DNA of 64,000 bases. Source: Patescibacteria group bacterium (GTDB lineage: Bacteria > Patescibacteriota > Minisyncoccia > Phycocordibacterales > UBA12445). The stretch covers positions 75,535-139,534 of the forward strand of contig DOAO01000007.1 in NCBI GenBank assembly GCA_003504275.1. The letters run 5' to 3'. The notes below the pieces were generated by a model that saw nothing but the letters and a program-made list of their open reading frames with translations, had not been told where the DNA came from and made no database searches. Shown here piece after piece: positions 2,771 to 63,744 of this stretch. Every line of letters begins with the position of its first letter. Position 1 is the first letter of the stretch. The translations under genes were made by a program, and so were the position numbers.

Positions 2771-4480
2771 ATGAAGGAAGATAACCTTAAAAATGAATGT
2801 TCTGTTGTAGTCTCATCTTGCGACGCTTTTTCAGATGTTTGGGAGGCATTTTTTACATTATTTTTTAAATATTGGCCTGATTGTCCATTCCCCATTTATC
2901 TTATAAGCGAAACAAAGAAATATCCCGATAACAGGGTAACAACATTAAACATCGGAGAAGATAAAAAATGGGCCACTAACATTAAGAACGCCTTAAAAAG
3001 AGTTAATACTAAAAATATAATTTATTTACAGGAAGATTATTTGCTTGAAAGTAAAGTCAACACAGAAAAAATTATAAATTTGATTAAAATTTTGAGCGAT
3101 AGTGGTGCTGCTTATTTAAAACTCTGTCCATCTCCCGCACCCTATAGAAAGTTCGGCGAATATAAAGATATTGGTGAAATAAAAAAGGGTAGCAATTACA
3201 GCATTTCTTTGCAGGCTGCGATATGGAATAAAAAAATAATGGAGGGTTTGTTGATAGATGGAGAAAGCGGATGGGATATGGAGTTTAAAGGTAGCATTAG
3301 GACCGCGGATATCAAGGAGCCACTTCTTAGCGTTTATAGCAGTGTTTTGAATTATTTTTATGCAACTGCGATAAAGAAAGGGGTATGGTTTTATGATGCA
3401 ATAAAATTATGTGAGAAAGAGGGAATAAAAATAGATAAAACAAAAAGAAGAATTGAAACATTTAATCACTATGTTTTAAGAGTGACAAAATTTTTACACC
3501 TAAAGAATATATTAAAAATTTTCTTATTTAAGGTAAAGAGAAAGATGATTTTAATTAGCAGATTTTCATTCAATTTATATTTATTTTTCAAAAAAAGTAA
3601 ACAAATTAGCGATTTTTATGTAACAAGAAAGACTTTTTTTGAAAATTATGACCTTATAAACAAACAAGATATTTCAAAATTTATAACTCCCCATTGGCAC
3701 GATTTAAATAAAAAATATGAAAATTATCTAAGAATAAAAAACGTACCGGTAAATTTCTTAAGAGACAGGGTAATCGGATACACAATGTTTGTTTCTTCTG
3801 GTGGCGGTGCCATGAAGGCCGAATTAGATTTTTTAGAAAATAAATATTCTAAAGGAGATTTAGGTAAATATTTAGAAGAAGAAGCCGTCGGTTTCCCTAT
3901 AATATTGAGCAGGAAATATCTCTCCTCTCACAATAGTATCCGTCACCTATACCACATAAGTCGCTTTATTTTTAGGACCAATGTGGAAATAAATTCCATA
4001 AAGACGGTTGTTGAGTGGGGAGGAGGATATGGTAATTTTGCTAAAATATTTTTAAGACTTCAGGACAGTCCCCAAAAAACAACTTATGTGATAATAGACA
4101 CCCCACTATTTAGCTGTATTCAGTGGTTATATTTGTCCGTTGTTCTTGGCAAAGATAAGGTTAATTTTGTTAGAAGAGAAAATGATAAGATTGTCTCCGA
4201 AAAGATAAACATCATTCCCCTTGGTTTTGTTGAGAAGGTTAATCTTAAGCCGGATTTATTTGTTTCTACTTGGGCGCTAAGTGAAAGTTCGCCATTCTCT
4301 CAAGATTTTGTTTTAAACAAAAACTTTTTTGGAGCTAAGCATCTTTTGATTGGTTATCAGGAAAGTAACCCATCGCTACCTGATGCGGATAGAATAAATT
4401 TAATCGTTGATGAAAAGAGGAAAGATACAATAAAAGAGATAATAGATTTTATCCCGGGGAATTATTATGTATTTAAATAA
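2771..4480 (+). CDS. hypothetical two-domain protein: N-terminal GT-like domain, C-terminal putative sugar O-methyltransferase-like domain
   Basis: Continuous 569-aa ORF. The N-terminal ~230 aa are W/F-rich and GT-like. A low-complexity AT-rich linker follows. The C-terminus carries VVEWGGGYGNFAKIF (GxGxG SAM-binding-like). Confidence 0.35.
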   Translation: MKEDNLKNECSVVVSSCDAFSDVWEAFFTLFFKYWPDCPFPIYLISETKKYPDNRVTTLNIGEDKKWATNIKNALKRVNTKNIIYLQEDYLLESKVNTEKIINLIKILSDSGAAYLKLCPSPAPYRKFGEYKDIGEIKKGSNYSISLQAAIWNKKIMEGLLIDGESGWDMEFKGSIRTADIKEPLLSVYSSVLNYFYATAIKKGVWFYDAIKLCEKEGIKIDKTKRRIETFNHYVLRVTKFLHLKNILKIFLFKVKRKMILISRFSFNLYLFFKKSKQISDFYVTRKTFFENYDLINKQDISKFITPHWHDLNKKYENYLRIKNVPVNFLRDRVIGYTMFVSSGGGAMKAELDFLENKYSKGDLGKYLEEEAVGFPIILSRKYLSSHNSIRHLYHISRFIFRTNVEINSIKTVVEWGGGYGNFAKIFLRLQDSPQKTTYVIIDTPLFSCIQWLYLSVVLGKDKVNFVRRENDKIVSEKINIIPLGFVEKVNLKPDLFVSTWALSESSPFSQDFVLNKNFFGAKHLLIGYQESNPSLPDADRINLIVDEKRKDTIKEIIDFIPGNYYVFK

Positions 4481-51998: not shown

Positions 51999-52304
51999 AT
52001 GCCAAGACCTCAACGTTGTTTGTGCCAAGGTATAAAATTTAGACCAAATGTAGTTTATTTCAAGCCCCAAGGTGTTCCGATACAAGATCTTGAGGTTGTA
52101 GAACTATCGATGGAAGAAATTGAATCTTATCGCTTACGCCATATAGATGACTTAGATCAAAAGGAATCTGCTGAAAGAATGCATACGTCTCAAAGTACTT
52201 ATCAGAGAATACTTAATTCAGCATATAAAAAAATTGCCGATTTTTTGATAAATGGCAAAGCAATTAAGGTTGTTGAGCACGAACAATTTGTTATTAGAAG
52301 TTAA
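51999..52304 (+). CDS. DUF134 (UPF0251) family predicted DNA-binding protein
   Basis: MPRPQRCLCQGIKFRPNVVYFKPQGVP N-terminus. C-terminal HTH-like region. Confidence 0.6.
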   Translation: MPRPQRCLCQGIKFRPNVVYFKPQGVPIQDLEVVELSMEEIESYRLRHIDDLDQKESAERMHTSQSTYQRILNSAYKKIADFLINGKAIKVVEHEQFVIRS

Positions 52305-52321
52305 AAATAAATAAATATAAC

Positions 52322-53065
52322 ATGACACTACTTTATATATTATTGGCCACACTTTCCATAACATTCTGCGTTTTTGTGGCTGTCGGTTTTTTGTATATAA
52401 AAAAAGAGATTTTACCAAAGATATTGTTGACACTAGTTTCTCTTTCTGCTGGTGCTTTGATGGGGGGCGCATTTTTGCACCTTTTACCGGAATCAGTTTC
52501 TTCAGGTGTTGGGTTTGATACTGCTGGGTTGATTGTTTTATTATCGTTTATTTTTTTTCTTTTAGTAGAAAAATTTCTTCATTGGCATCATTGTCACAAG
52601 GCAAATTGTGATATCCATGGCAGTATTGGTCGCATCAATCTCTTGGGAGACTCTATCCATAATTTTATTGATGGTCTTGTGATAGCCGCTTCTTTTTTGG
52701 TTGATTTCAATACAGGAATAGCAACATCATTGGCAATAGCACTACACGAGATACCTCAAGAAATTGGGGATTTTGGTGTTCTTTTGTATGCAGGATATAA
52801 CAGAAAAAGGGCGCTAATCTTTAATTACCTAGTCGCAACGACAGTGGTATTGGGAGGTTTGGCGGGTTACTTCTTTAATTTTATGATTGAGGGTGTAATG
52901 CCTTACTTATTGCCATTTGCAGCCGGAGGATTTATTTATATTGCAGCCTCCGACCTTATACCTGAAGTACGAAAAGAAACAAGTGTAAGTAAGTTTATGC
53001 TTCACCTCAGTGTTTTTGTTATAGGTATTATTTTCATGTTTTTAATAAAATTTATTCACGAATAA
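52322..53065 (+). CDS. ZIP-family divalent metal transporter (ZupT-like)
   Basis: HNFIDGLVIAASF and HEIPQEIGDFGVLL metal-binding motifs. 8 TM helices. Confidence 0.7.
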   Translation: MTLLYILLATLSITFCVFVAVGFLYIKKEILPKILLTLVSLSAGALMGGAFLHLLPESVSSGVGFDTAGLIVLLSFIFFLLVEKFLHWHHCHKANCDIHGSIGRINLLGDSIHNFIDGLVIAASFLVDFNTGIATSLAIALHEIPQEIGDFGVLLYAGYNRKRALIFNYLVATTVVLGGLAGYFFNFMIEGVMPYLLPFAAGGFIYIAASDLIPEVRKETSVSKFMLHLSVFVIGIIFMFLIKFIHE

Positions 53066-53076
53066 TTTTTAAATTT

Positions 53077-53346
53077 ATGAAAGTATTAAAATTTGGAGCA
53101 GTTTGGTGTTCTGGTTGTCTTGTAATGAGACCAAGGTGGAAGGAAATAGAAGAGGAAAATAAATGGATGAAAAATGAATATTATGATTTCGACAAAGATA
53201 AGGAGATGGTAGAAAAATACAAAATAGATCAAAATTTACCCACTTTTGTTTTTCTGGATAAAAATAATAATGAGATAATGCGTTTGAGCGGGGAGCCATC
53301 AAAGGAAGAGTTACTTAAGTTGATTGAAGTGCACAAAGACAAATAA
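53077..53346 (+). CDS. thioredoxin-fold protein
   Basis: WCSGC active site. 89 aa. Confidence 0.6.
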   Translation: MKVLKFGAVWCSGCLVMRPRWKEIEEENKWMKNEYYDFDKDKEMVEKYKIDQNLPTFVFLDKNNNEIMRLSGEPSKEELLKLIEVHKDK

Positions 53347-53355
53347 CCAAAATAT

Positions 53356-54561
53356 ATGTTTAAAAAAATTATTTTCTCAATCTTTTTATTTTCTCTGTTT
53401 TTGATACCAGGGTATATTTTTGCTCAAGAAAATAAAAATATTGTTAATGTTTATTTCTTTTGGGGCAACGGTTGTCCCCATTGTGCTAATGAGAAGCCGT
53501 TTTTGGATAAAATTGAAAAAGAAAATGAATATGTTCATATTAATAGGTACGAGGTTTGGGAAAATAAAGAAAACCTTGATTTACTTATTAATATTGGTAA
53601 AGAGCTGGGGGTAAATGTTTCAGGGGTTCCTTTGACGCTGGTTGGGGATGAATCTTTTGTTGGATATGCTGAAGGGTATACATCTAAACAAATAGAAGAC
53701 AGAATTGCTTATTGTTCCACTAATAAATGCAAAGATTCCGTTGCATCTCTTGCTGGACTAGAAACATCAAACGGAGATGGTGAGGTACTAGCTTCTTTTA
53801 CAAAGAAGGAAATTCCAGAAAGCATTAACTTACCAATAGTAGGAAATATAAATATTAAAAACTTTTCCCTGCCTCTTCTTACGGTTATTTTGGGTGGTTT
53901 GGATGGTTTTAATCCCTGTGCAATGTGGACACTTCTCTTTCTGATAAGTCTTCTTTTGGGAATGGAGAATAAGAAAAGAATGTGGATATTGGGCAGTGCT
54001 TTCATAATAAGTTCAGCCCTCGTGTATTTTATGTTCATGGTGGCATGGTTAAATTTACTTTTATTTCTTGGATTTATTGTTTGGGTAAGAATTTCCGTGG
54101 GTTCTTTGGCTTTAATTGGTGGGGGTTACAATATAAGAGAGTATTTTATGAGTCAAACCGCAGGATGTAAAATTACTGGATCAGAAAAAAGGCAGGCTGT
54201 TTTTGAAAAATTAAAAAAAATTACACAAGAAAATAGCTTTTGGTTGGCACTTGTTGGTATCGTTATCCTTGCTTTTGCTGTTAATTTGGTAGAGTTGATT
54301 TGTTCCGCCGGATTACCGGCTGTTTATGCTCAAGTTCTTGCGCTTAGCGAACTCTCTTCCTTGCAATACTATTTATACATTTCCTTGTATATATTTGTTT
54401 TTATGTTAGACGATTTGGTTGTCTTTTTCATTGCCATGTACACACTGGAGATGGTTGGAATTACAACTAAATATACAAAATGGTCTCATTTAATAGGCGG
54501 GTTATTGATGGTAATAATAGGCTTCCTGCTTATTTTAAGGCCAGATTTGTTAATGTTCTAA
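53356..54561 (+). CDS. thioredoxin-like domain fused to CcdA/DsbD-type transmembrane disulfide-reductant domain
   Basis: N-terminal signal peptide and WGNGCPHC. C-terminal multi-TM region with a conserved Cys in a helix (GLDGFNPCAMWTL), as in the DsbD/CcdA family. Confidence 0.6.
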   Translation: MFKKIIFSIFLFSLFLIPGYIFAQENKNIVNVYFFWGNGCPHCANEKPFLDKIEKENEYVHINRYEVWENKENLDLLINIGKELGVNVSGVPLTLVGDESFVGYAEGYTSKQIEDRIAYCSTNKCKDSVASLAGLETSNGDGEVLASFTKKEIPESINLPIVGNINIKNFSLPLLTVILGGLDGFNPCAMWTLLFLISLLLGMENKKRMWILGSAFIISSALVYFMFMVAWLNLLLFLGFIVWVRISVGSLALIGGGYNIREYFMSQTAGCKITGSEKRQAVFEKLKKITQENSFWLALVGIVILAFAVNLVELICSAGLPAVYAQVLALSELSSLQYYLYISLYIFVFMLDDLVVFFIAMYTLEMVGITTKYTKWSHLIGGLLMVIIGFLLILRPDLLMF

Positions 54562-54604
54562 AAATAAGTAATCATGTATCTAAGGAATAATTTTTTATTT
54601 TAAA

Positions 54605-55666
54605 ATGATTATTAAAAAACTACTCATTATTTTATTTTTAATTCCATTTTTTGTTATTGCCGAAAGCCCTGAAATTTTTAAAGGTGAGGTGTTGGATATT
54701 ACGTTTGAGGAAGATACTATAATTCCGGAAATAAATTTAGAAACTTTTGTTCAGGATCTAAAAATAAAGATTATTGAAGATAACAATAAAGAGAAGATTA
54801 TAGACGTAAAGAATGACTACATAAGGCTTAAGAAGGGGGATAGGGTTTTTGTAGAAAACACTGGAAACGGTACAAAGGAAGAGGGCAGTTTTATCATAAA
54901 AGAAAAAGATAGAACTGGTCCTCTTTTTTATTTTCTAATAATATTTGTTTCCTCAATAATTTTTTTTGGTGGAATGCAAGGTGTTAGATCTGTGTTCAGT
55001 TTGTTTTTAAGCTTTGTTGCAATTGGTTATATCCTTATTCCCGCAATAATGAGCGGTTACTCACCAGTATTAATAAGTAGTGCGGTTGCAACAGCAATAT
55101 TATTTATTGCTATATATTTTACACATGGTTTCAATAGAGAATCCACCTCGGCCTTTTTAGGAACGGTAATCTCCGTAATCGTTACTGGTTTTTTATCTTA
55201 TGTTGGAGTAAAAATGGCTCAATTTACAGGAATGGGAACAGAAGAGGCTTTTATCCTTAGTTTACATGGAGGTGTAAGTATCGATTTTTCGGGTCTACTT
55301 TTGGGAGGTATTATAATTGGAACCTTGGGTGTTTTGGATGATGTTGCTGTAACGCAATCTATTGTCGTAAGGGAAATTTATAAACTACAAAAAGATATGA
55401 AATTTTCCGATGTCTATAAACGTGCGTTGTCTGTTGGAAAGGAGCATGTTGGAGCAATGGTTAACACTCTGGCCTTGGCTTACACGGGAGCGTCTTTGCC
55501 TCTTATTCTTATTTTTTACAAAAGCGAATATCCCGTGTCTCTTATTTTGAGTCAGGAGATATTTTCCGTTGAAATAATGAGGACTGTGGTTGGAAGTATT
55601 GGGTTGATTTTTTCAGTTCCATTAACCACAGCTTTTGCTGTTTATCTTTTAAGGAGTAAAATTTAA
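54605..55666 (+). CDS. YibE/F-family membrane protein
   Basis: N-terminal signal/soluble domain followed by ~8 TM helices. YibE/F-like GMQGVRSVFSLFLSF. Confidence 0.5.
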   Translation: MIIKKLLIILFLIPFFVIAESPEIFKGEVLDITFEEDTIIPEINLETFVQDLKIKIIEDNNKEKIIDVKNDYIRLKKGDRVFVENTGNGTKEEGSFIIKEKDRTGPLFYFLIIFVSSIIFFGGMQGVRSVFSLFLSFVAIGYILIPAIMSGYSPVLISSAVATAILFIAIYFTHGFNRESTSAFLGTVISVIVTGFLSYVGVKMAQFTGMGTEEAFILSLHGGVSIDFSGLLLGGIIIGTLGVLDDVAVTQSIVVREIYKLQKDMKFSDVYKRALSVGKEHVGAMVNTLALAYTGASLPLILIFYKSEYPVSLILSQEIFSVEIMRTVVGSIGLIFSVPLTTAFAVYLLRSKI

Positions 55667-55670
55667 ATAT

Positions 55671-56099
55671 ATGAAAAAATATCTTTTAATTGGAACTTTT
55701 TTAACAGTAGGATTATTTGTCTATAATTTTTATTCTCCAGGTGTCTGTCTTGGAGGAGAGTGTGAAGTAATTTCAAATATAGAGCAGACTGCTAGTTTGT
55801 CTAATCCTGAAATTATTCAAAAACAGCTAAATATTGGCCAATTTGTTCTAATTGATGTAAGGGAGGACGAAGAGTGGGACACTGGACACATTTTGGGAGC
55901 AAAACATATACCCTTAAGTAGTTTAAATGAAGAAACCACAAGAAATATTCCTAAAGATAAAATAGTTTATCTTTATTGTCGTTCAGGTAAGAGAGCTAAA
56001 AACGCTGAGACCATAATGAATGATTTGGGTTTTGAAAAAGCTAAGGGTATTGGTGGAATTGTGGAATGGCAAGAAAACGGAGGTGTATTGGTTCAATAG
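55671..56099 (+). CDS. rhodanese-like sulfurtransferase domain protein
   Basis: LIDVREDEEWDTGHI...YCRSGKRA, with the active-site Cys in CRSG. Confidence 0.65.
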   Translation: MKKYLLIGTFLTVGLFVYNFYSPGVCLGGECEVISNIEQTASLSNPEIIQKQLNIGQFVLIDVREDEEWDTGHILGAKHIPLSSLNEETTRNIPKDKIVYLYCRSGKRAKNAETIMNDLGFEKAKGIGGIVEWQENGGVLVQ

Positions 56100-56130
56100 A
56101 AGTATGCGTCTTTATTATTAATATATAAAA

Positions 56131-56838
56131 ATGAATAAAAAGAATTTATTAGTGGTATCGTTATTTTTTGTTTTATTCTTGATTCTTAGTTTTAATTTAA
56201 ATCAGAAAAAAAATACAAATTCAAATAATTTAAACAATAAATACGAAGAATATGTAGTTGATTCCGGAGATATGATAAAAGAAAAAGACCTCTCCGTGTC
56301 TATATTAGATTTAAATATTACAGCAGAAGAGAAGGCCGGTCTCATTCTTATGAGGGAAGAGGAGAAATTGGCCAGAGATGTATATCGTCACCTTGGGGAA
56401 AAGTGGGGAATGAATATTTTCTTTAATATAGCAGATAGCGAACAAACACATACTAATGCTATTAAGGTACTGCTTGAACGTTATGGCGTAGAGGATCCTG
56501 TTAAAGACGATATTTCGGGTAAATTTACTTCTTTGGAAATGTCCAAATTGTACGAAGAATTAATACAAAAAGGAGAAAAGTCTATTGTCGATGCGATTAT
56601 GGTGGGTGCCATTATAGAGGATCTTGATATAAAGGATTTGGAGGTTCTTTTGGGACAAACGACAAAAGAGGATATTGTTTTAACTTATAAAAACCTTCAA
56701 AAAGGTTCTAGAAACCATCTTCGTGCTTATTCAAAAAATTTAGATCGTCAAGGAATTACATATGCTCCGCAATACATATCTGAGGAAATATACAAACAAA
56801 TAATTTCTTCTGAACAAGAGAGGGGAACAGTAAAATAA
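56131..56838 (+). CDS. DUF2202 ferritin-like domain protein
   Basis: LILMREEEKLARDVYRHLGEKWGMNIFFNIADSEQTHTNAIKVLLERYG. Confidence 0.55.
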   Translation: MNKKNLLVVSLFFVLFLILSFNLNQKKNTNSNNLNNKYEEYVVDSGDMIKEKDLSVSILDLNITAEEKAGLILMREEEKLARDVYRHLGEKWGMNIFFNIADSEQTHTNAIKVLLERYGVEDPVKDDISGKFTSLEMSKLYEELIQKGEKSIVDAIMVGAIIEDLDIKDLEVLLGQTTKEDIVLTYKNLQKGSRNHLRAYSKNLDRQGITYAPQYISEEIYKQIISSEQERGTVK

Positions 56839-56857
56839 CCCGTCATTCACAAATAAA

Positions 56858-56890
56858 ATACCGGTATAAACGCCGGTATTTTTGTTTTTG
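56858..56890 (+). terminator. rho-independent terminator
   Basis: ATACCGG-TATAAACG-CCGGTAT followed by TTTTGTTTTTG. Confidence 0.65.
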
Positions 56891-56919
56891 TTGACAAAAA
56901 ACAGTTATGGGTATATATT
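56891..56919 (+). promoter_or_regulatory. sigma70-like promoter for the DUF5320 gene
   Basis: TTGACA, exactly 17-nt spacer, TATATT, about 40 nt upstream of the ATG at 56959. Confidence 0.55.
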
Positions 56920-56958
56920 CATAATAATAGTCGTATTTATTATTTAATTTTTAAAAAA

Positions 56959-57153
56959 ATGCCAAGATTAGATGGAACAGGCCCAATGGGCCAGGGGCGT
57001 GGTATGGGTCGTGGGCAGGGGGGGGTTGGGAGAGGACGTCGGGGTTTTTCTCAGAACCAAGTTAGAAAACTTGATGGAACAGGCCCAATGGGTCAGGGAC
57101 CAAGAACTGGCAGAGGGTTGGGAAATTGTCCCGCTTCTGATAAAAGGGTTTAG
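56959..57153 (+). CDS. DUF5320-family small Gly-rich protein
   Basis: MPRLDGTGPMGQGRGMGRGQGG...LDGTGPMGQGPRTGRGLGNCPAS with an internal repeat and a C-terminal Cys. Confidence 0.55.
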   Translation: MPRLDGTGPMGQGRGMGRGQGGVGRGRRGFSQNQVRKLDGTGPMGQGPRTGRGLGNCPASDKRV

Positions 57154-57259
57154 GTTTTTAAAAACCTAATTATTACGTTATTGTTGTCAAAATTAAGAAT
57201 ATATTGTAAAAGTTATTTTCTTTGTATTTTTTATTTGCGTTATTTATTTTTATTTTTTA

Positions 57260-57385
57260 TAATAACATTGAGGTTGATGGTTTGACAGGTTGTGTCGTGA
57301 GGCATAACCACTCGGTTGCAACAGACCGATAGAACCGTTTTACCTTGTCGAGAAGTTCCGGGTCAAACCGGGGCTTTTTGATTTG
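57260..57385 (+). promoter_or_regulatory. structured 5' leader with intrinsic terminator/attenuator upstream of the P-type ATPase (candidate riboswitch)
   Basis: GC-richer structured stretch inside an AT-rich intergenic region. Ends in hairpin AAGTTCCGG-GTCAAA-CCGGGGCTT plus TTTGATTTG, about 45 nt before the start codon. Confidence 0.4.
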
Positions 57386-57428
57386 TGGTTAATTTTGGAA
57401 AATTTGAAAATATTAGTAGAATTGTCTT

Positions 57429-60083
57429 ATGAATAAAATAGATAAAGATACGATTAAAAATCCATTTTGGGCAATGTCGGCGGAAGATTCTGTCGCAATA
57501 TTAAGATCTTCTTATTTGGGTGTTTCAAATCAAGAGGTCTCTGAAAGAAAAAAGATTTTTGGGAAAAATAAAATAATATCCCAAAAGCAATTTGTTGTCT
57601 TGAAACTATTTCTAAGACAATTTGAGAGCCCATTGATTTACATATTGGTACTGGCGGGAATTGTAACCTTATTATTGGGTGATTTTAGTGATGCCATATT
57701 TATATTTACAGCTGTTTTTATAAATGTGTCTCTCGGTTTTTATCAGGAGAATAAAGCAGAAAAAGCCCTGGAGAGTTTGGCTAATTATTTAGAAATAAAG
57801 ACTAGGGTTATAAGGGAAGGAAAGATAAAGGAAATAAATATAGAAGAACTCGTTCCTGGGGACATAATAAATTTTTCTAGTGGAGATAGTATTCCTGCAG
57901 ATTGTAGAATCATTCAATCAAATAATCTTTTGATAGATGAGGCAATATTAACAGGCGAATCTCTTCCTGTGGAAAAAGGAGTAAGGACGGTTGGATTAAG
58001 GGTTGGTTTGGGAGACAAAAAATCGATGGTTTTTTCAGGCACCTCTGTTGTTGAAGGGCTTGGTTCCGCTGTTGTCGTCTCAACGGGTAAAGATACTGAG
58101 CTTGGTCTAATAGCATCACTTATGGCTAGTATAAAAGACGAAGTCACACCTTTGCAAAAGAACATAAATTCTTTCGCAAATAAACTTACTATAATGGTTT
58201 TACTCCTGTCTTTTATGGTTTTTGTTTTGGGATTATTTTATGAATATTCTATTTTGGAAATGTTCACGATGTCGGTTGCCATTGCGGTGGCTGCTGTTCC
58301 CGAAGGTCTCGCTATATCATTGACGGTTATTTTGGCTGTTGGAGTAGAGAGATTGGCAAAGAAAAAGGGTGTTGTAAGGAGGCTTTCATCTTCAGAGACA
58401 CTTGGAGATACTTCCGTTATTCTTACGGACAAAACAGGAACATTAACCATGGCCAAAATGAATCTAGTTAGAGTAGAGGTTCCATATCTGGAAAATCAAA
58501 ACAATCTCTTGGATTATCAGAAGGAAATATTGAAGTTTGCAATACTTTGCACGGATGCTCGTGTTGAAAATCCAGAAGCACCAATTTCTGAATGGAGAGT
58601 AATAGGTAAGTCGCTAGATTCGGCCCTAATAATTGGCGCAGCAAAAAATTTTGAATTAAAAGAGTTTGATATAAGAAAAAGAGCATCTGTAATAGATAGA
58701 TTACCTTTTAATTCTTCAAATAAATTTTCAGCAGTTAAGATTAGAGAGGGAGAAATAGAGTCTACTCTTATGATTGGCGCCCCAGAGGTTGTTTTAAAAA
58801 TGTGCCACAATTTTTACTGGAATGGAAAAAATGCTATTTCAGACAAAGAGAGATCTGATCTTTTGAAAGAGGTTCACAAGAATGCGGGAGATGGATACAG
58901 AATAATTTCCGTTGCATTTTCTGAAAAAAATAAAAATACACAGCTCAAAGATATTAAAAAAATAGACGGATTTTATTATTTGGGAAACCTTTTATTAAAG
59001 GATCCAATTAGAAAAGAAGTTGGTCAGGCTATAAAGGAAATACAAAAAGAAGGAATTAGAACGATTATTGTGACCGGTGACCATACTGGTACTGCAAAAT
59101 CTGTGGCTCGAGAAATAGGCATGGATATAGATGAAAATTCTGTTATTGAACAACATGAACTGGATTTGTTAAGTGACGAAGAATTGCAGGCAAAGCTATC
59201 TTCGGTAAGAATTTTTTCTAGAATCAATCCAGAGTCTAAGGTTAGAATCGCAAGATTATTTCAAAACAATGGCCACGTCGTTGCTATGACTGGTGATGGT
59301 GTGAATGACGCGCCTGCCCTAAAACAAGCCGATGTGGGAATAGCAATTGGTTCTGGTTCTGGTGTGGCGCGTGAATCTTCTGATCTGGTTCTTCTGGATG
59401 ATAGTTTCCACACCATAGTTTCCGCCATAGATGAAGGAAGAAGAATTCTTCAGAATATAAGAAAGGTTTTGGTTTTTTGTTTAACTTCTCTATTTGACGA
59501 ACTTATTCTCGTTGGTGGTTCTATTATTCTTAATATACCTATTCCTTTAAATGCACTGCAGATACTTTGGGTAAATTTTATTGCAGACAGTTTTCCGGCC
59601 GTTTCCCTTTCTTATGAAGATGAAAAAAATAAAGAAGAAATAATAAGAAGGAAAATAAGCAGAGAATCTGTCTTTGATAAGGAGGTAAAATTCTTGGTAT
59701 GGGTAATTGGAATCCTCACAAGTATACTTTTATTTTCTTTGCACGTAATAATGTTAAAACTCGGCATAGAAGAGGGTCTTGTTAGAACATTTATTTTTGC
59801 GTCATTTGGAATTTATACACTCATGCTTATTTTTTCTATTAGAAGTCTGGATAAGAATATTTGGGAATATAACCCATTTTCCAATTGGTTAACAAATCTT
59901 AGTTCCGCTGTTGGTTTATTGTTAATGTTTGTTGCTATTTATTTTCCTCCCGCACAAGCGCTTCTAGATACCGTGTCACTCCCTGAGCCCTGGATTCTTT
60001 CTGTTTTTGGTGTCGGCTTTTCTTGTATAGTGATGGTTGAGGTTGGAAAATTTATATTTATAAGAAAAAAAATGGTGCGTTAA
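57429..60083 (+). CDS. cation-transporting P-type ATPase (type II, Ca2+/Mg2+-like)
   Basis: DKTGTLT phosphorylation motif, TGDGVNDAPAL hinge, TGES. 884 aa, 10 TM helices. Confidence 0.85.
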   Translation: MNKIDKDTIKNPFWAMSAEDSVAILRSSYLGVSNQEVSERKKIFGKNKIISQKQFVVLKLFLRQFESPLIYILVLAGIVTLLLGDFSDAIFIFTAVFINVSLGFYQENKAEKALESLANYLEIKTRVIREGKIKEINIEELVPGDIINFSSGDSIPADCRIIQSNNLLIDEAILTGESLPVEKGVRTVGLRVGLGDKKSMVFSGTSVVEGLGSAVVVSTGKDTELGLIASLMASIKDEVTPLQKNINSFANKLTIMVLLLSFMVFVLGLFYEYSILEMFTMSVAIAVAAVPEGLAISLTVILAVGVERLAKKKGVVRRLSSSETLGDTSVILTDKTGTLTMAKMNLVRVEVPYLENQNNLLDYQKEILKFAILCTDARVENPEAPISEWRVIGKSLDSALIIGAAKNFELKEFDIRKRASVIDRLPFNSSNKFSAVKIREGEIESTLMIGAPEVVLKMCHNFYWNGKNAISDKERSDLLKEVHKNAGDGYRIISVAFSEKNKNTQLKDIKKIDGFYYLGNLLLKDPIRKEVGQAIKEIQKEGIRTIIVTGDHTGTAKSVAREIGMDIDENSVIEQHELDLLSDEELQAKLSSVRIFSRINPESKVRIARLFQNNGHVVAMTGDGVNDAPALKQADVGIAIGSGSGVARESSDLVLLDDSFHTIVSAIDEGRRILQNIRKVLVFCLTSLFDELILVGGSIILNIPIPLNALQILWVNFIADSFPAVSLSYEDEKNKEEIIRRKISRESVFDKEVKFLVWVIGILTSILLFSLHVIMLKLGIEEGLVRTFIFASFGIYTLMLIFSIRSLDKNIWEYNPFSNWLTNLSSAVGLLLMFVAIYFPPAQALLDTVSLPEPWILSVFGVGFSCIVMVEVGKFIFIRKKMVR

Positions 60084-60118
60084 AAACTTTTATTTTTTGA
60101 TTCTGCTATAATTAACCT

Positions 60119-60991
60119 ATGAAAAAATATTTAATATTTGCAGTAGTGTTTTTTTTATTTGTTTTTATTAATCACAGCTTAGCTGTCGAAATACCTCCTA
60201 TTAAGCCCGGCAAGGTCACTCCTATTAAATGGGATAATACCCGGGAAATGATAGATTTGGTCAACGCCTGTCCGATTCAGGATATTGATCCTGCAGAGCC
60301 AAAACCGACCGTTTCAAATATGAAAGGAAGATTTAAGATTATTCGAGCTGATGGTAGCGAACAATATTACTACAACAGACACGGAGAAGCAAATGCTCCA
60401 GTAGAACTTAAGGATGGCGATCAAATAAAGACGTCTGACGGTTCTTCTTCAATAAATTTATCAGACGGAAGTAGCTGGATACTTGGTGAGAACACTACCG
60501 TTAAATACAGAAATAATGAAACCCTCACAAAAATATCGTTATTGGTTGGTAAATTAAGAATATTAAGACCGTCTGTCTTTTTACATGGTTTAAAGAAAAA
60601 AGTCGCTGCAAAACTTGAACCAAAAATGAGAGTAACTTCAGCTTGTGTAAGGGGAACTGATTTTGTGATGGAGCAGACTGAGGACGAAAATACATCAAAA
60701 TATTATCTACATGAGGGAACATTAGACATCGCTACATTGCAGGGCGAGATTAAGCATTTACAATCTGGAGATATTGCTGTGGTGGATTTCGATGGTCAGG
60801 TTGTTCTCACGAAATTAGATGATAATGAATGGAATGAATTAGTGAAAAATCTCGCTCCTCTCGGTGCCATAAATCCACCAGCACAGGAAGGAGAGACTAC
60901 CACTAAACAATCTTCGTCGAAATGGATTGTCTTGGTTACTGTTTTATTGATAATTGGCGGATATTATATTTATAAAAAGAAGTTTAGATAA
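60119..60991 (+). CDS. secreted FecR-domain-like protein with C-terminal TM anchor
   Basis: Signal peptide, FecR-like beta region (INLSDGSSWILGENTTVKY...GKLRIL), C-terminal hydrophobic helix. Confidence 0.4.
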   Translation: MKKYLIFAVVFFLFVFINHSLAVEIPPIKPGKVTPIKWDNTREMIDLVNACPIQDIDPAEPKPTVSNMKGRFKIIRADGSEQYYYNRHGEANAPVELKDGDQIKTSDGSSSINLSDGSSWILGENTTVKYRNNETLTKISLLVGKLRILRPSVFLHGLKKKVAAKLEPKMRVTSACVRGTDFVMEQTEDENTSKYYLHEGTLDIATLQGEIKHLQSGDIAVVDFDGQVVLTKLDDNEWNELVKNLAPLGAINPPAQEGETTTKQSSSKWIVLVTVLLIIGGYYIYKKKFR

Positions 60992-61003
60992 TTTTACTAC
61001 AAG

Positions 61004-61041
61004 AAAAAATCCCCTCAACCAATCGGCAAGAGGGGATTTTT
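61004..61041. terminator. bidirectional rho-independent terminator between convergent genes
   Basis: A-run, TCCCCTC, 13-nt loop, GAGGGGA, T-run. Confidence 0.6.
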
Positions 61042-61043
61042 AG

Positions 61044-61376
61044 TTAAACTTTTCCAAATCTATACAGGATGCCGTCGTAGACATTTCTAAACCAGTTTTT
61101 TAGTCCCTCTATTGTATAGTCTAGCGTGTTGTTTATCTTTGTTGTGATACCAGATAGATAATCAAATATCTTACTAAATCCCGTTGGAACATCGTATTTT
61201 ATATCTGACGTCGGCTTCTGAGCCTTTTCATAAGAATTGCCTCGATCAGGACAAGGTATCTCTAGGGTGTCTATACAGACTGGCTCGGGAATGACATATT
61301 CTTGAGCGAAAGCGATCGGTGCAACTAATAATGACGCCACTATTAATCCGCAAATTATTATTTTATTTTTTTTCAT
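61044..61376 (-). CDS. small secreted hypothetical protein
   Basis: Signal peptide MKKNKIIICGLIVASLLVAPIAFA. 110 aa. Confidence 0.4.
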   Translation of the reverse strand: MKKNKIIICGLIVASLLVAPIAFAQEYVIPEPVCIDTLEIPCPDRGNSYEKAQKPTSDIKYDVPTGFSKIFDYLSGITTKINNTLDYTIEGLKNWFRNVYDGILYRFGKV

Positions 61377-61466
61377 ACTTTTATTTTACCACTCAATATG
61401 TTTAATCGCAAAGTTTCTTCTCAATAATTCATTGCGCCTCATTCTTTATTACATTAAGATTAATAG

Positions 61467-62387
61467 ATGGAAATTCAAACATATTTATTTATTGCATTTG
61501 CTTTTATAATTACCATTTTTCTCGTTGCTGATCTTGGATACTTTAACAGACGTGCACACAAGGTGGATATGAAGTCGGCGCTTTTGCAGTCTATCTTTTG
61601 GGTGGCGGTTTCTCTCGCTTTTGCAGTTTTAATCCTTATATATATGGGGGAGGATTTAGCTCTTCAGTTTTTGAGTGCATATGTCACAGAAAAGATGCTT
61701 TCTGTAGACAATCTATTTGTTATTCTTTTAATTTTTAATTTCTTTAAGTTAGATGAGAAATATCATCATCGCGCACTGTTTTGGGGTATTTTGGGTGCAA
61801 TAGTTTTTCGAGGAATATTTATTACTGCTGGTTCGCTCATCGTCAGCCAATTTCACTGGGTATTGTATATTTTTGGAGTGATACTTATTTATACAGGCTT
61901 TAAATTGTTTGAAGAAAAAAAGGAAGAGCATATCAATTTTCACGAAAACAAAGTTTTAAAGTTTGCTCATAAATATCTGTCTTTTACGAACAGTCCCCAT
62001 GAAGGTAAATTTATGCTTCGCGAGAATGGCAAGTGGCATTTTACCCTACTCTTCATGATAGTGCTTCTTGTAGAAACCACAGATATAGTTTTCGCAGTTG
62101 ATTCTATCCCGGCCGCGTTCGCAATTACTCAGAATCCTTTTATACTTTATACTTCAAATATTTTTGCGGTAATGGGTCTTCGAGCACTCTTCTTCCTTAT
62201 TGAGAATGTTATGCACAGGTTTCATCATTTACAGAAGGGGCTATCCTTAATCCTTATTTTTATCGGCGGTAAAATGTTTGCCGGAATTTTTCATATTGAG
62301 ATATCGTCTTTTGTATCATTTGCCATTGTGATGTCCGCTCTTGTTTTATCTCTGGTTCTCTCCATATATTTTCCAAAGAAAATATAA
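61467..62387 (+). CDS. TerC-family integral membrane protein
   Basis: VDNLFVILLIF and DSIPAAFAITQNPFILYTSNIFAVMGLRALFF repeats of the TerC/Alx family. Confidence 0.7.
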   Translation: MEIQTYLFIAFAFIITIFLVADLGYFNRRAHKVDMKSALLQSIFWVAVSLAFAVLILIYMGEDLALQFLSAYVTEKMLSVDNLFVILLIFNFFKLDEKYHHRALFWGILGAIVFRGIFITAGSLIVSQFHWVLYIFGVILIYTGFKLFEEKKEEHINFHENKVLKFAHKYLSFTNSPHEGKFMLRENGKWHFTLLFMIVLLVETTDIVFAVDSIPAAFAITQNPFILYTSNIFAVMGLRALFFLIENVMHRFHHLQKGLSLILIFIGGKMFAGIFHIEISSFVSFAIVMSALVLSLVLSIYFPKKI

Positions 62388-62460: not shown

Positions 62461-63261
62461 ATGCACCAACAACTTGTAGATTTTATAGAAGAATATCTTC
62501 GAAAAGGCTCGACAAAAGAAGAGATTCACTCGGCTCTTTTAAGGGTGGGTGGATGGACACAGAAAGAAGTAGATGATGTTTTTTTAATTGTCGAAAGAAA
62601 TAATTCATCCTTACCCCAAGATGTTCCAGTTAAGCCAATACCTACAATACCAGCCGTCTCTTCAAATATTGATATCAAACCGACAGTACCAACAAATTCT
62701 CCCGTGACACCACAGAAGCCAATTATTCCGCCATATTCTAGGCCTGTTATAAACAAGCCACCAATGATTGGATTTCAGACATCTTCTCCCTCCTCTGCGC
62801 CTAAGCCACAATTGGAATTTAAGACAACTCCCGCGTTACCACCAAGGCCTTTAATGGATATCAAGGAGCCCTCTTCGCAATTCAAGCCAGTCAAGCCACA
62901 AATGCAGATTTACCCCATGCCAACTCAATCTCCTGTGTCTGCGAATAATACACTTCGGATTGTCTTAATAACTATTTCTATTTTTTCCTTATTCATTGCT
63001 GGAGGAGTGTTTGTATATTTTTACTACTTTGCTCCTGTGATAAATGAAAAAATACCGGTTCAAAATATTGCTACAACAACTGAAACCGAGAGGAATGTTA
63101 TTTTGCCTCCAGACAATGCCGTTCCAGAAGGGGCTGATTTACTTATTCTGCCCCCGGAGATTATTCAGGATATAAAAAACGATGTTTCTTCTACAACGTT
63201 AGAAGTGCCCATAGTTCCTCCTACGCAGTCTTCGTCTTCAGTCCCTTTTGTTAACGATTAA
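62461..63261 (+). CDS. hypothetical Pro-rich membrane-anchored protein
   Basis: N-terminal soluble domain, Pro/Thr-rich low-complexity linker, single TM helix. Confidence 0.35.
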   Translation: MHQQLVDFIEEYLRKGSTKEEIHSALLRVGGWTQKEVDDVFLIVERNNSSLPQDVPVKPIPTIPAVSSNIDIKPTVPTNSPVTPQKPIIPPYSRPVINKPPMIGFQTSSPSSAPKPQLEFKTTPALPPRPLMDIKEPSSQFKPVKPQMQIYPMPTQSPVSANNTLRIVLITISIFSLFIAGGVFVYFYYFAPVINEKIPVQNIATTTETERNVILPPDNAVPEGADLLILPPEIIQDIKNDVSSTTLEVPIVPPTQSSSSVPFVND

Positions 63262-63479
63262 TAACGTTTATAAAAAAAGACTAAGAAAAATATCTCTTAG
63301 TCTTTTTTATTGCCCAAAAATCAAAAAGACCTAGATAAATCTAGGACTCTTTGATGAGGTAAGATGGTTCTATCGATCTGTTGCAAACGAGTGGCTTATA
63401 CCTTGCGATAAAACCTATCAAACCATCAACCTCATTTACAAGTATAAAAAAAAGATAAAAATGGGTCAAGGATCCACCT

Positions 63480-63675
63480 GTGGATAACTTTTGCACCCTC
63501 GTCACCGTCATTGCGAGACGAGGCGCATTGCCCAGTAGTGAGCTCTGCTCTACTACCTTGGGTCCTAGCCGAGTCGTGGCAATCCCCGTCGACCAATCCA
63601 GGAATCCATTCCCGTTTCCGTCATTGCGAAGGCTTTAGCCTGTGGCAATCCAGACTGAGTTTTTTATGATATTAT
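63480..63675. repeat. cluster of GTCATTGCGAG / GTGGCAATCCAGA palindromic repeat motifs (same family as 8377, 29896, 32770)
   Basis: GTCATTGCGAGACGAGG...GTCGTGGCAATCC...CCGTCATTGCGAAGGCTTTAGCCTGTGGCAATCCAGACTGAG followed by a T-run. Confidence 0.5.
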
Positions 63676-63744
63676 AATTGTGCGTAGGGTTTTTCATTTT
63701 AAATAACTCCTACCAACTAATATTTACTTTATATTTTTTATTTT

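Follow-up and report, generated by a model that had tools for sequence, protein, structure and literature searches.

A recurrent promoter-RNA-terminator unit in Parcubacteria: a candidate family of free-standing, possibly metal-linked small RNAs

The locus and its gene neighbourhood

The stretch of DNA analysed here, referred to as the window, comprises 64,000 nucleotides of a MAG from the Parcubacteria (CPR). Within it, two copies of a structured element, copy 1 at 57270-57390 (+) and copy 2 at 63433-63313 (-), face inward across a 6-kb block of genes. The features of both copies and of the block are collected in Table 1, together with the genomic context of the six copies of the element that are compared below. 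An initial annotation of the window had placed a P-type ATPase gene directly downstream of copy 1 and TerC further downstream, and both assignments were borne out by Pfam and NCBIfam models. For the ATPase, the best NCBIfam model is of the PMR1 type, with a score of 598 bits that does not reach the equivalog cut-off of 798. Its nearest solved relatives in a PDB sequence search are the Ca2+(/Mn2+) pumps LMCA1 of Listeria (6zhf/9euq, E = 1.4e-144) and human SPCA1 (E = 1.5e-124).

Table 1. Positions of the two copies and the enclosed genes in the window, and gene context of the six copies
Feature	Positions	Strand	Basis or description
Copy 1, predicted sigma-70-type promoter	57235-57263	+	-35 TTGCGT 57235-57240, 17-nt spacer, -10 TATAAT 57258-57263
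Copy 1, three-way-junction domain, 77 nt	57270-57346	+	MFE and centroid folds, covariation in six sequences
Copy 1, P1/P1a	57270-57283 with 57332-57346	+	
Copy 1, J1/2	57284-57287	+	GACA
Copy 1, P2	57288-57309	+	GNRA loop GUGA
Copy 1, J2/3 and J3/1		+	AC (J2/3); UA (J3/1)
Copy 1, P3	57312-57329	+	loop GCAACA
Copy 1, predicted intrinsic terminator	57347-57392	+	15-bp stem 57347-57382, loop GUCAAA; U-rich tract CUUUUUGAUUUGUGG overlaps, then follows
AU-rich spacer up to ATPase start codon	57393-57428	+	
P2A-type cation ATPase, 884 aa	57429-60083	+	Pfam, NCBIfam; gene downstream of copy 1
FecR-domain protein	60119-60991	+	
110-aa ORF	61044-61376	-	
TerC/Alx	61467-62387	+	matches NCBIfam model R_switched_Alx
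266-aa ORF, no family	62461-63261	+	
Perfect 14-bp hairpin, A and T runs on either side (bidirectional terminator)	63273-63308		repeat search
Copy 2, predicted intrinsic terminator	63320-63355	-	followed by CUUUUUGAUUUUUGG; alignments, fold, pair counts
Copy 2, three-way-junction domain	63356-63433	-	about 86% identical to copy 1
Copy 2, predicted promoter	63441-63469	-	-35 TTGACC 63469-63464, 17-nt spacer, -10 TATACT 63446-63441
Context of window copy 1			same-strand downstream: ATPase, 45 nt
Context of window copy 2			same-strand downstream: none (convergent ORF); located after the TerC operon
Context of L127			same-strand downstream: VF530-family 71-aa protein, ~30 nt
Context of L129			same-strand downstream: VIT1/CCC1 Fe/Mn transporter, ~35 nt
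Context of L130			same-strand downstream: none (convergent small membrane ORF); MgtE divergent, ~76 nt between
Context of L131			same-strand downstream: unannotated membrane ORF after ~200 nt with another hairpin; S49 peptidase upstream

A dense cluster of metal-themed genes extends over 51999-62387 and includes DUF134, a ZIP permease (52322-53065), thioredoxin, YibE/F, rhodanese and DUF2202, which is presumably ferritin-like, followed by a glycine-rich DUF5320 protein (56959-57153), the ATPase, the FecR-domain protein and TerC/Alx. Genes for DUF5320 and DUF134 also flank a 77%-identical ATPase ortholog in another contig (L003, 5246-5739), there on the other side. With respect to translation signals, Shine-Dalgarno-like motifs precede about 8% of 50 long ORFs in the window, and a TGnTATAAT-like box stands 6 nt before the ATG of several first genes (e.g. 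those starting at 60119 and 61044), an arrangement suggestive of leaderless mRNAs.

Sequence, fold and transcription signals of the two copies

Copy 1 differs markedly in composition from the AT-rich spacer around it, as had been pointed out initially. The GC content of 57270-57382 is 0.50, compared with 0.15 over the preceding 116 nt, 0.22 on the downstream side and 0.35 in the whole window. The previously described 9-bp hairpin is likewise present as stated, formed by AAGTTCCGG (57352-57360) with CCGGGGCTT (57367-57375), including two G-U pairs, and followed directly by TTTGATTTG, 45 nt past which lies the ATG of the ATPase at 57429. By terminator scan, this helix is the upper part of a 15-bp terminator-like stem. 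The MFE of 57255-57428 is -55.5 kcal/mol, against -37.7 +/- 3.1 kcal/mol for 200 dinucleotide shuffles (z = -5.8), none of which was as stable as the native sequence (0/200). The feature at copy 1 is real and well beyond chance, and its fold, its predicted intrinsic terminator and covariation in six sequences uphold the earlier description of a structured RNA ending in a terminator upstream of the ATPase. Its proposed extent of 57260-57428 captured the feature, but the true unit is slightly larger and also takes in the predicted promoter upstream of the RNA.

The -10 box of that promoter is a perfect match to TATAAT, and from its position transcription is expected to start on the first base of P1 (about 57269-57271). 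A simple promoter scanner had overlooked it because the -35 box matches at just three of six positions. From this start, the RNA would fold into the 77-nt three-way junction of Table 1, which scored 133.8 bits with covariance model R1 and 102.4 bits with R2. Another promoter-like sequence, TTGGAA-16-TAGAAT (57395-57422), occurs in the AU-rich spacer and ends 6 nt short of the ATPase ATG. This is a weak match (9/12) of a kind found at near-chance frequency (5 vs 3.4 expected in 1 kb), and it is not conserved among the other family members. A separate ATPase promoter giving rise to a leaderless mRNA was also considered and set aside: about 20% of the genes in the window have a -10-like hexamer 6-9 nt ahead of the ATG, a share that by our estimate is close to chance in AT-rich sequence. 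In addition, two independent Logan assemblies of the same organism (L133 and L134) both start, at their position 1, at window position 57355 within the copy-1 terminator hairpin. This identical break point probably arose in assembly, owing to the perfect palindrome, and does not reflect biological variation.

The minus-strand copy 2 was detected by nhmmer (63434-63309, E = 4.6e-17) and blastn (86% identity over 78 nt) and was found separately by a repeat search as the inverted repeat 57269-57307 / 63396-63434. In the alignment, similarity between the copies spans the -35 box to the terminator U tract and ends there. The predicted promoter of copy 2 is the better of the two, and both of its boxes fall at the same aligned positions as those of copy 1. 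Its junction domain scored 126.3 bits (R1) and 95.8 bits (R2), and when the copy-1 architecture was imposed on it, the resulting fold lay 0.3 kcal/mol above the copy-2 MFE. The P2 loop is GCAA, by which the GNRA type is kept, the P3 loop is GCAACA and J1/2 is GAUA. Furthermore, the terminator stem differs in sequence from that of copy 1 with its pairing kept (CCGG/CCGG changed to CUAG/CUAG).

Copy 2 is aimed at the 3' end of the convergent 266-aa ORF located after TerC. Between the end of this ORF and copy 2 lies the perfect 14-bp hairpin, which is 83% similar to the copy-2 terminator, and tandem terminators are therefore present there. Since the ORF is convergent and a bidirectional terminator intervenes, copy 2 has no gene to lead. 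Further copies were not found within about 87 kb of the same contig, including 10 kb to the left and 3 kb to the right of the window.

This inward-facing arrangement suggests a reading in which transcription itself regulates the block, with copy 1 driving or gating the ATPase in sense orientation and read-through from copy 2 running antisense to, or colliding with, the operon of the 266-aa ORF and TerC. Riboswitch-controlled antisense RNAs of Listeria and Clostridium would be the model for such regulation. The convergent geometry of the two copies was confirmed, and their absence from the rest of the ~87 kb places both specifically at the borders of the block. However, the bidirectional terminator separates copy 2 from the operon, inward-facing pairs do not recur among the other family members (on short contigs), and no switch structure is evident, which makes regulation of this kind highly unlikely.

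The region upstream of copy 2 contains several further sequence elements. A perfect DnaA-box-like sequence, TTATCCACA (63479-63487, -), lies directly upstream of the -35 box, and AAGTTATCCACAG, the same as the DnaA-box sequence at copy 2, is also found upstream of the promoter of the homolog on contig L127 (about 3609-3621). An oriC at this position was rejected, as the window holds no box cluster and 30 near-matches vs 19 expected; the sequence at copy 2 and L127 may serve in regulation or stem from a flank of common ancestry. Between copy 2 and an RNase_T-like gene (start 63745, +), a GC-rich block (63485-63700) holds a palindromic element in two units, GATTGCCAC...CGCAATGACGG, with fold z-scores of just -2.2 and -2.8. 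An exact 11-mer of this element recurs at 63505-63515 and 63618-63628 (-), against 0.19 occurrences expected in the window allowing one mismatch, and contig L133 terminates within the block. The palindrome resembles what we take to be a widespread REP-like repeat that gives rise to spurious '...RFARNDG' ORFs.

A structured RNA family in unrelated gene contexts

A metagenome scan blind to genomic context was carried out, its search pattern being derived from the junction and the P3 loop. Four of the five loci returned (L127, L129, L130 and L131) are true homologs from other uncultivated bacteria, each with promoter, junction and terminator; the fifth, L128, was discarded as a chance match within a coding region. 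In all six sequences, sequence prediction places a -35 TTGxxx, a 17-nt spacer and a TATAAT-like -10 about 6 nt before P1. Similarity between loci is limited to the promoter-terminator unit of 115-180 nt and stops at the terminator U tract; neither the flanks nor the neighbouring proteins are related. As junction and P3 loop are fixed in the pattern, the scan may have passed over more divergent members, and for the same reason the invariance of these two parts is not independent evidence.

The structure was tested on an alignment of the two window copies and the four homologs (A3). At the positions of the proposed pairs, 97.3% of cells are paired in this alignment, compared with 37-56% when the 3' partners were slid by 1-3 columns. 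Changes on both sides were found at eight pairs, distributed across P1/P1a, P2, P3 and the terminator, and none of 500 shuffles equalled the observed values. Five of these pairs belong to P1/P1a, P2 and P3, where 96-99% of cells are paired, and three to the terminator stem, which is present in all six sequences. In addition, the P2 tetraloop, which the search pattern did not impose, is GUGA, GCAA or GUAA and conforms to GNRA in 6/6. The structure of the RNA is under selection, and because the alignment holds six distinct sequences, four of them close relatives, the covariation and context statistics are thin.

The strand of the RNA is fixed by 54 G-U pairs: 250 of 257 pairs are canonical on the RNA strand, compared with 196 of 257 on its complement. 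An RNA on the opposite strand, which would put the element in the mgtE leader of L130, was ruled out by this count. The same pairs bear on a reading in which the element is a mobile or recombinogenic DNA repeat, either MITE-like or forming the inverted termini of a 6-kb segment that is composite or invertible. Its hairpins would then matter in the DNA itself, and its RNA features would be incidental. Inverted copies flanking a cargo-like metal-homeostasis block, a patchy distribution across genomes with unrelated flanks, and Logan contigs that break within copy 1 would all be in keeping with such a repeat. However, each G-U pair would be an A-C mismatch in the complementary strand or a cruciform of the DNA, and the GNRA loop is kept through three sequence variants. 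The unit is bounded by a promoter and a terminator, and the repeat search revealed internal hairpins and AT-rich low-complexity matches but no terminal inverted repeats or target duplications. Furthermore, no transposase or recombinase lies nearby, the copies are just 86% identical, the orientation of the block is constant in every assembly seen, and contig breaks within perfect hairpins are a common assembly artefact. A mobile origin of the element is considered most improbable.

With regard to gene context, a co-oriented gene follows within 30-45 nt in three of the six copies (ATPase, VIT1 and VF530), while such a gene is lacking close to the other three: window copy 2 and L130 are convergent with their neighbours, and L131 is followed by a gap of about 200 nt. 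A share of 3/6 roughly agrees with the expectation for a free-standing gene. Four copies adjoin divalent-cation transporter loci (the ATPase, the TerC operon, VIT1 and MgtE), in three orientations. Transporters account for 3/12 of the immediately flanking genes, against a rough expectation, by our own estimate, of 1-2% of genes; no metal-related gene was found near L127 or L131. L138 and L139 are contigs of the same organism as L130, and L129 shares its JGI sample of origin with L139, a contig of the L130 type, so that one organism may carry both the VIT1-linked and the MgtE-linked copy. On L131 (231-4762), a DNA methylase gene (561 aa) is divergent from a gene for a fusion of UvrD helicase and PD-(D/E)XK nuclease (933 aa), about 1.4 kb from the RNA; this pair may represent a defence-type island.

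Loci orthologous to those of the neighbouring genes were searched with nhmmer, blastn and covariance models R1 and R2. The initial annotation had named a missing Rfam match together with lack of conservation of the leader at orthologous ATPase loci as the outcome that would count against a riboswitch, and at these loci absence was found: upstream of five ATPase orthologs (L001-L006, 65-77% identity) there was no nhmmer, blastn or genuine covariance-model match. Two weak R1 matches in L003 were dismissed as generic terminators with the inner hairpins deleted. Similarly, the RNA was not found at three VIT1 relatives (L135-L137, 74-80% identity) or at one MgtE relative (L140/L141, 62% identity), and none of the sampled orthologous loci holds a known Rfam riboswitch. 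The unit is thus found in several unrelated gene settings, whereas orthologs of its neighbouring genes are not accompanied by it. Two of the ATPase loci show other peculiarities. Upstream of the 65%-identical ortholog in L002 (2633-2920), a tRNA gene (2633-2715) stands ahead of two partial copies of its own 3' end (...CCAACTCGGCGCAC), which look like scars of integration at the tRNA. In L005, a contig of 550 kb, 1.85 kb without a called gene (652-2500) lies just upstream of the 75%-identical ortholog and yielded neither an Rfam match nor a match to the new RNA.

Comparison with known RNAs and proposed function

Searches of Rfam 15 with cmscan returned only four tRNAs for the whole window at gathering score, and only tRNAs for the homolog loci. 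Within 57100-57500, no riboswitch family matched at E <= 10, yybP-ykoY, M-box, ydaO and NiCo included; the only matches were weak ones to sRNA models with 7.6-20.1 bits, far short of the gathering scores of 39-106 bits. The identities that had been raised as candidates, namely M-box, yybP-ykoY, c-di-AMP (ydaO) and NiCo, accordingly find no counterpart at gathering score or at E <= 10. In viral contigs, two specific patterns gave no match; more than 120 matches to a 15-base pattern were attributed to chance, and 19 matches to an 18-base pattern were rejected as a single phage coding gene with no R1 score. Blastn against phage and plasmid collections gave no match to the RNA, and a literature search found no description of such an RNA, or of an sRNA or metal riboswitch in Parcubacteria or Patescibacteria.

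Among the close parallels is yybP-ykoY (RF00080), since the new RNA likewise has an intrinsic terminator behind a structured domain and lies by P-type ATPase, TerC and VIT1-like genes of the kind that yybP-ykoY controls. The yybP-ykoY fold has four helices, with docked, conserved L1/L3 loops that form metal sites, whereas the new RNA is a 77-nt three-way junction with two hairpins, supported by covariation. In contrast to yybP-ykoY, moreover, half of the copies lie outside a 5' UTR and no switch was found, in addition to the missing covariance-model match; upstream of the TerC gene in the window, no yybP-ykoY element was found either. The M-box (RF00380), a Mg2+ riboswitch upstream of mgtE/mgtA in Firmicutes, is comparable in its terminator-type 3' end and in its gene partners, the new RNA being near an MgtE gene (L130) and a P-type ATPase gene. 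However, the new RNA has no Rfam match, is about half the size of the M-box and, in L130, is divergent from mgtE and outside its leader. A P1 that closes a junction with two hairpins, one of them GNRA-capped and possibly engaged in a tertiary contact, is also reminiscent of purine and c-di-GMP-I riboswitches. Purine aptamers have long conserved junction strands, whereas those of the new RNA measure 4, 2 and 2 nt, and there is no sequence or covariance-model similarity to either class.

A further group of comparable RNAs consists of free-standing, Rho-independent bacterial sRNAs. MicF/ompC and OxyS/oxyR are cases of sRNAs encoded beside functionally related genes, and the SreA/SreB sRNAs of Listeria are riboswitch-derived. 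The new RNA resembles this group in having its own promoter, a compact fold, a terminator with a U tail and several paralogous copies, of which one (L130) is divergent from a transporter gene and some lack a downstream gene; it has no homology to MicF, OxyS or SreA/SreB. We know of no characterised sRNA regulators or Hfq-type chaperone in CPR bacteria.

The main alternative, held to be less likely, is a new cis-acting riboswitch or attenuator. Here, the ligand of the junction would be a divalent cation, another small molecule or a protein, and its binding would modulate the terminator; of the cations, Mn2+ agrees best with the neighbouring genes (SPCA-like ATPase, VIT1 and TerC). Read-through into the ATPase, VIT1 or VF530 gene would be controlled in this way, and orphan copies would be decayed or sRNA-like derivatives. 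Transcriptional riboswitches have the architecture seen here, in which a terminator stands behind a compact conserved junction, and paralogous copies beside different cation transporters form a pattern typical of riboswitch regulons. In line with this, three copies stand where a cis-regulator would be placed, 30-45 nt ahead of a co-oriented gene, and two of these three genes encode metal exporters. The share of transporters among flanking genes exceeds expectation, and in a genome poor in Shine-Dalgarno motifs a 5' UTR could be provided by the AU-rich spacer. Against these points stand the convergent position of window copy 2 and L130, the 200-nt gap with its own hairpin in L131, and the MgtE gene of L130, which is divergent from the RNA and not downstream of it. 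The neighbouring transporters also differ in ion and comprise exporters plus an importer, the element is missing at 9/9 sampled orthologous loci of its supposed target genes, and no Rfam family matches at E <= 10.

In the expression platform, no switch is evident. In folding calculations, transcripts cut before the 3' arm of the terminator keep the junction folded with the 5' arm unpaired, and folds in which the terminator is forbidden are 14-22 kcal/mol worse. P1 and the terminator adjoin without overlap, and no pairing of the terminator 5' arm with the junction domain was found by thermodynamic folding, a method that cannot settle co-transcriptional behaviour. The one potential alternative that would favour a switch is a pairing of about 15 bp between the 5' strand of P1/P1a and the terminator loop plus 3' arm, available in copy 1, L129, L130 and L131. 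This pairing is about 19 kcal/mol worse, must outcompete a local hairpin, is absent in copy 2 and L127, and does not make an antiterminator that uses the terminator 5' arm. Of the metal-sensing riboswitch proposed initially, the structured RNA, its terminator and a more frequent association with metal-transporter genes than expected have held up, while no Rfam counterpart, no leaders at the sampled orthologous loci and no antiterminator were found. The riboswitch reading of the leader is weakly supported overall, although ligand-controlled read-through may occur in some copies.

The reading preferred here, to which a probability of roughly one half is assigned, is that the feature belongs to a hitherto undescribed, possibly metal-linked family of free-standing genes for structured small RNAs in Parcubacteria (CPR). 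As judged from sequence prediction, the unit has what characterizes sRNA genes: a position-conserved promoter of its own, a 3' end defined by a terminator and independence from the downstream gene. Of the features expected of a riboswitch, it has the structured domain with covariation but does not consistently occupy the 5' UTR of a co-oriented gene (3/6). The unit is therefore predicted to behave as a self-contained promoter-RNA-terminator gene and not as an ATPase leader. A sigma-70-type promoter would start transcription at the first base of P1, and the transcript would fold into the three-way junction with its long P1/P1a, GNRA-capped P2 and P3 with the GCAACA loop. The strong intrinsic terminator abutting P1 would then yield a discrete RNA of about 115 nt. 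The terminator is probably constitutive, so that a stable small RNA would be released instead of a leader for the ATPase.

Because four of the six copies adjoin divalent-cation transporter loci and their orientations differ, such an RNA probably acts in trans, or via a bound factor or ion, in cation homeostasis, a link to which the gene neighbourhood points. A duplex-energy scan of 52 start regions in the window gave long, uninterpretable duplexes and no trans target, and neither a seed region nor a target was identified in it. It is also conceivable, though unlikely, that the junction is the sensor of a new divalent-cation-responsive RNA class in CPR, operating as a riboswitch (for which Mn2+/Ca2+ would be the most coherent ligands) or as a metal-responsive sRNA. 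The unit would then serve as a portable cassette of promoter, sensor and terminator, placed next to transporter genes for Ca/Mn, Fe/Mn and Mg.

Altogether, the RNA appears to be new as a family, yet of a familiar kind of element. If it is merely a lineage-restricted sRNA, it would constitute a modest addition to the catalogues of RNA families. The Candidate Phyla Radiation appears to have received little attention with respect to regulatory RNAs, and a compact, covariation-backed RNA with its transcription signals, without an Rfam counterpart and near cation transporters is a concrete candidate for RNA-based regulation linked to metals in reduced genomes. With a length of 77-115 nt, it lends itself to direct biochemical study.
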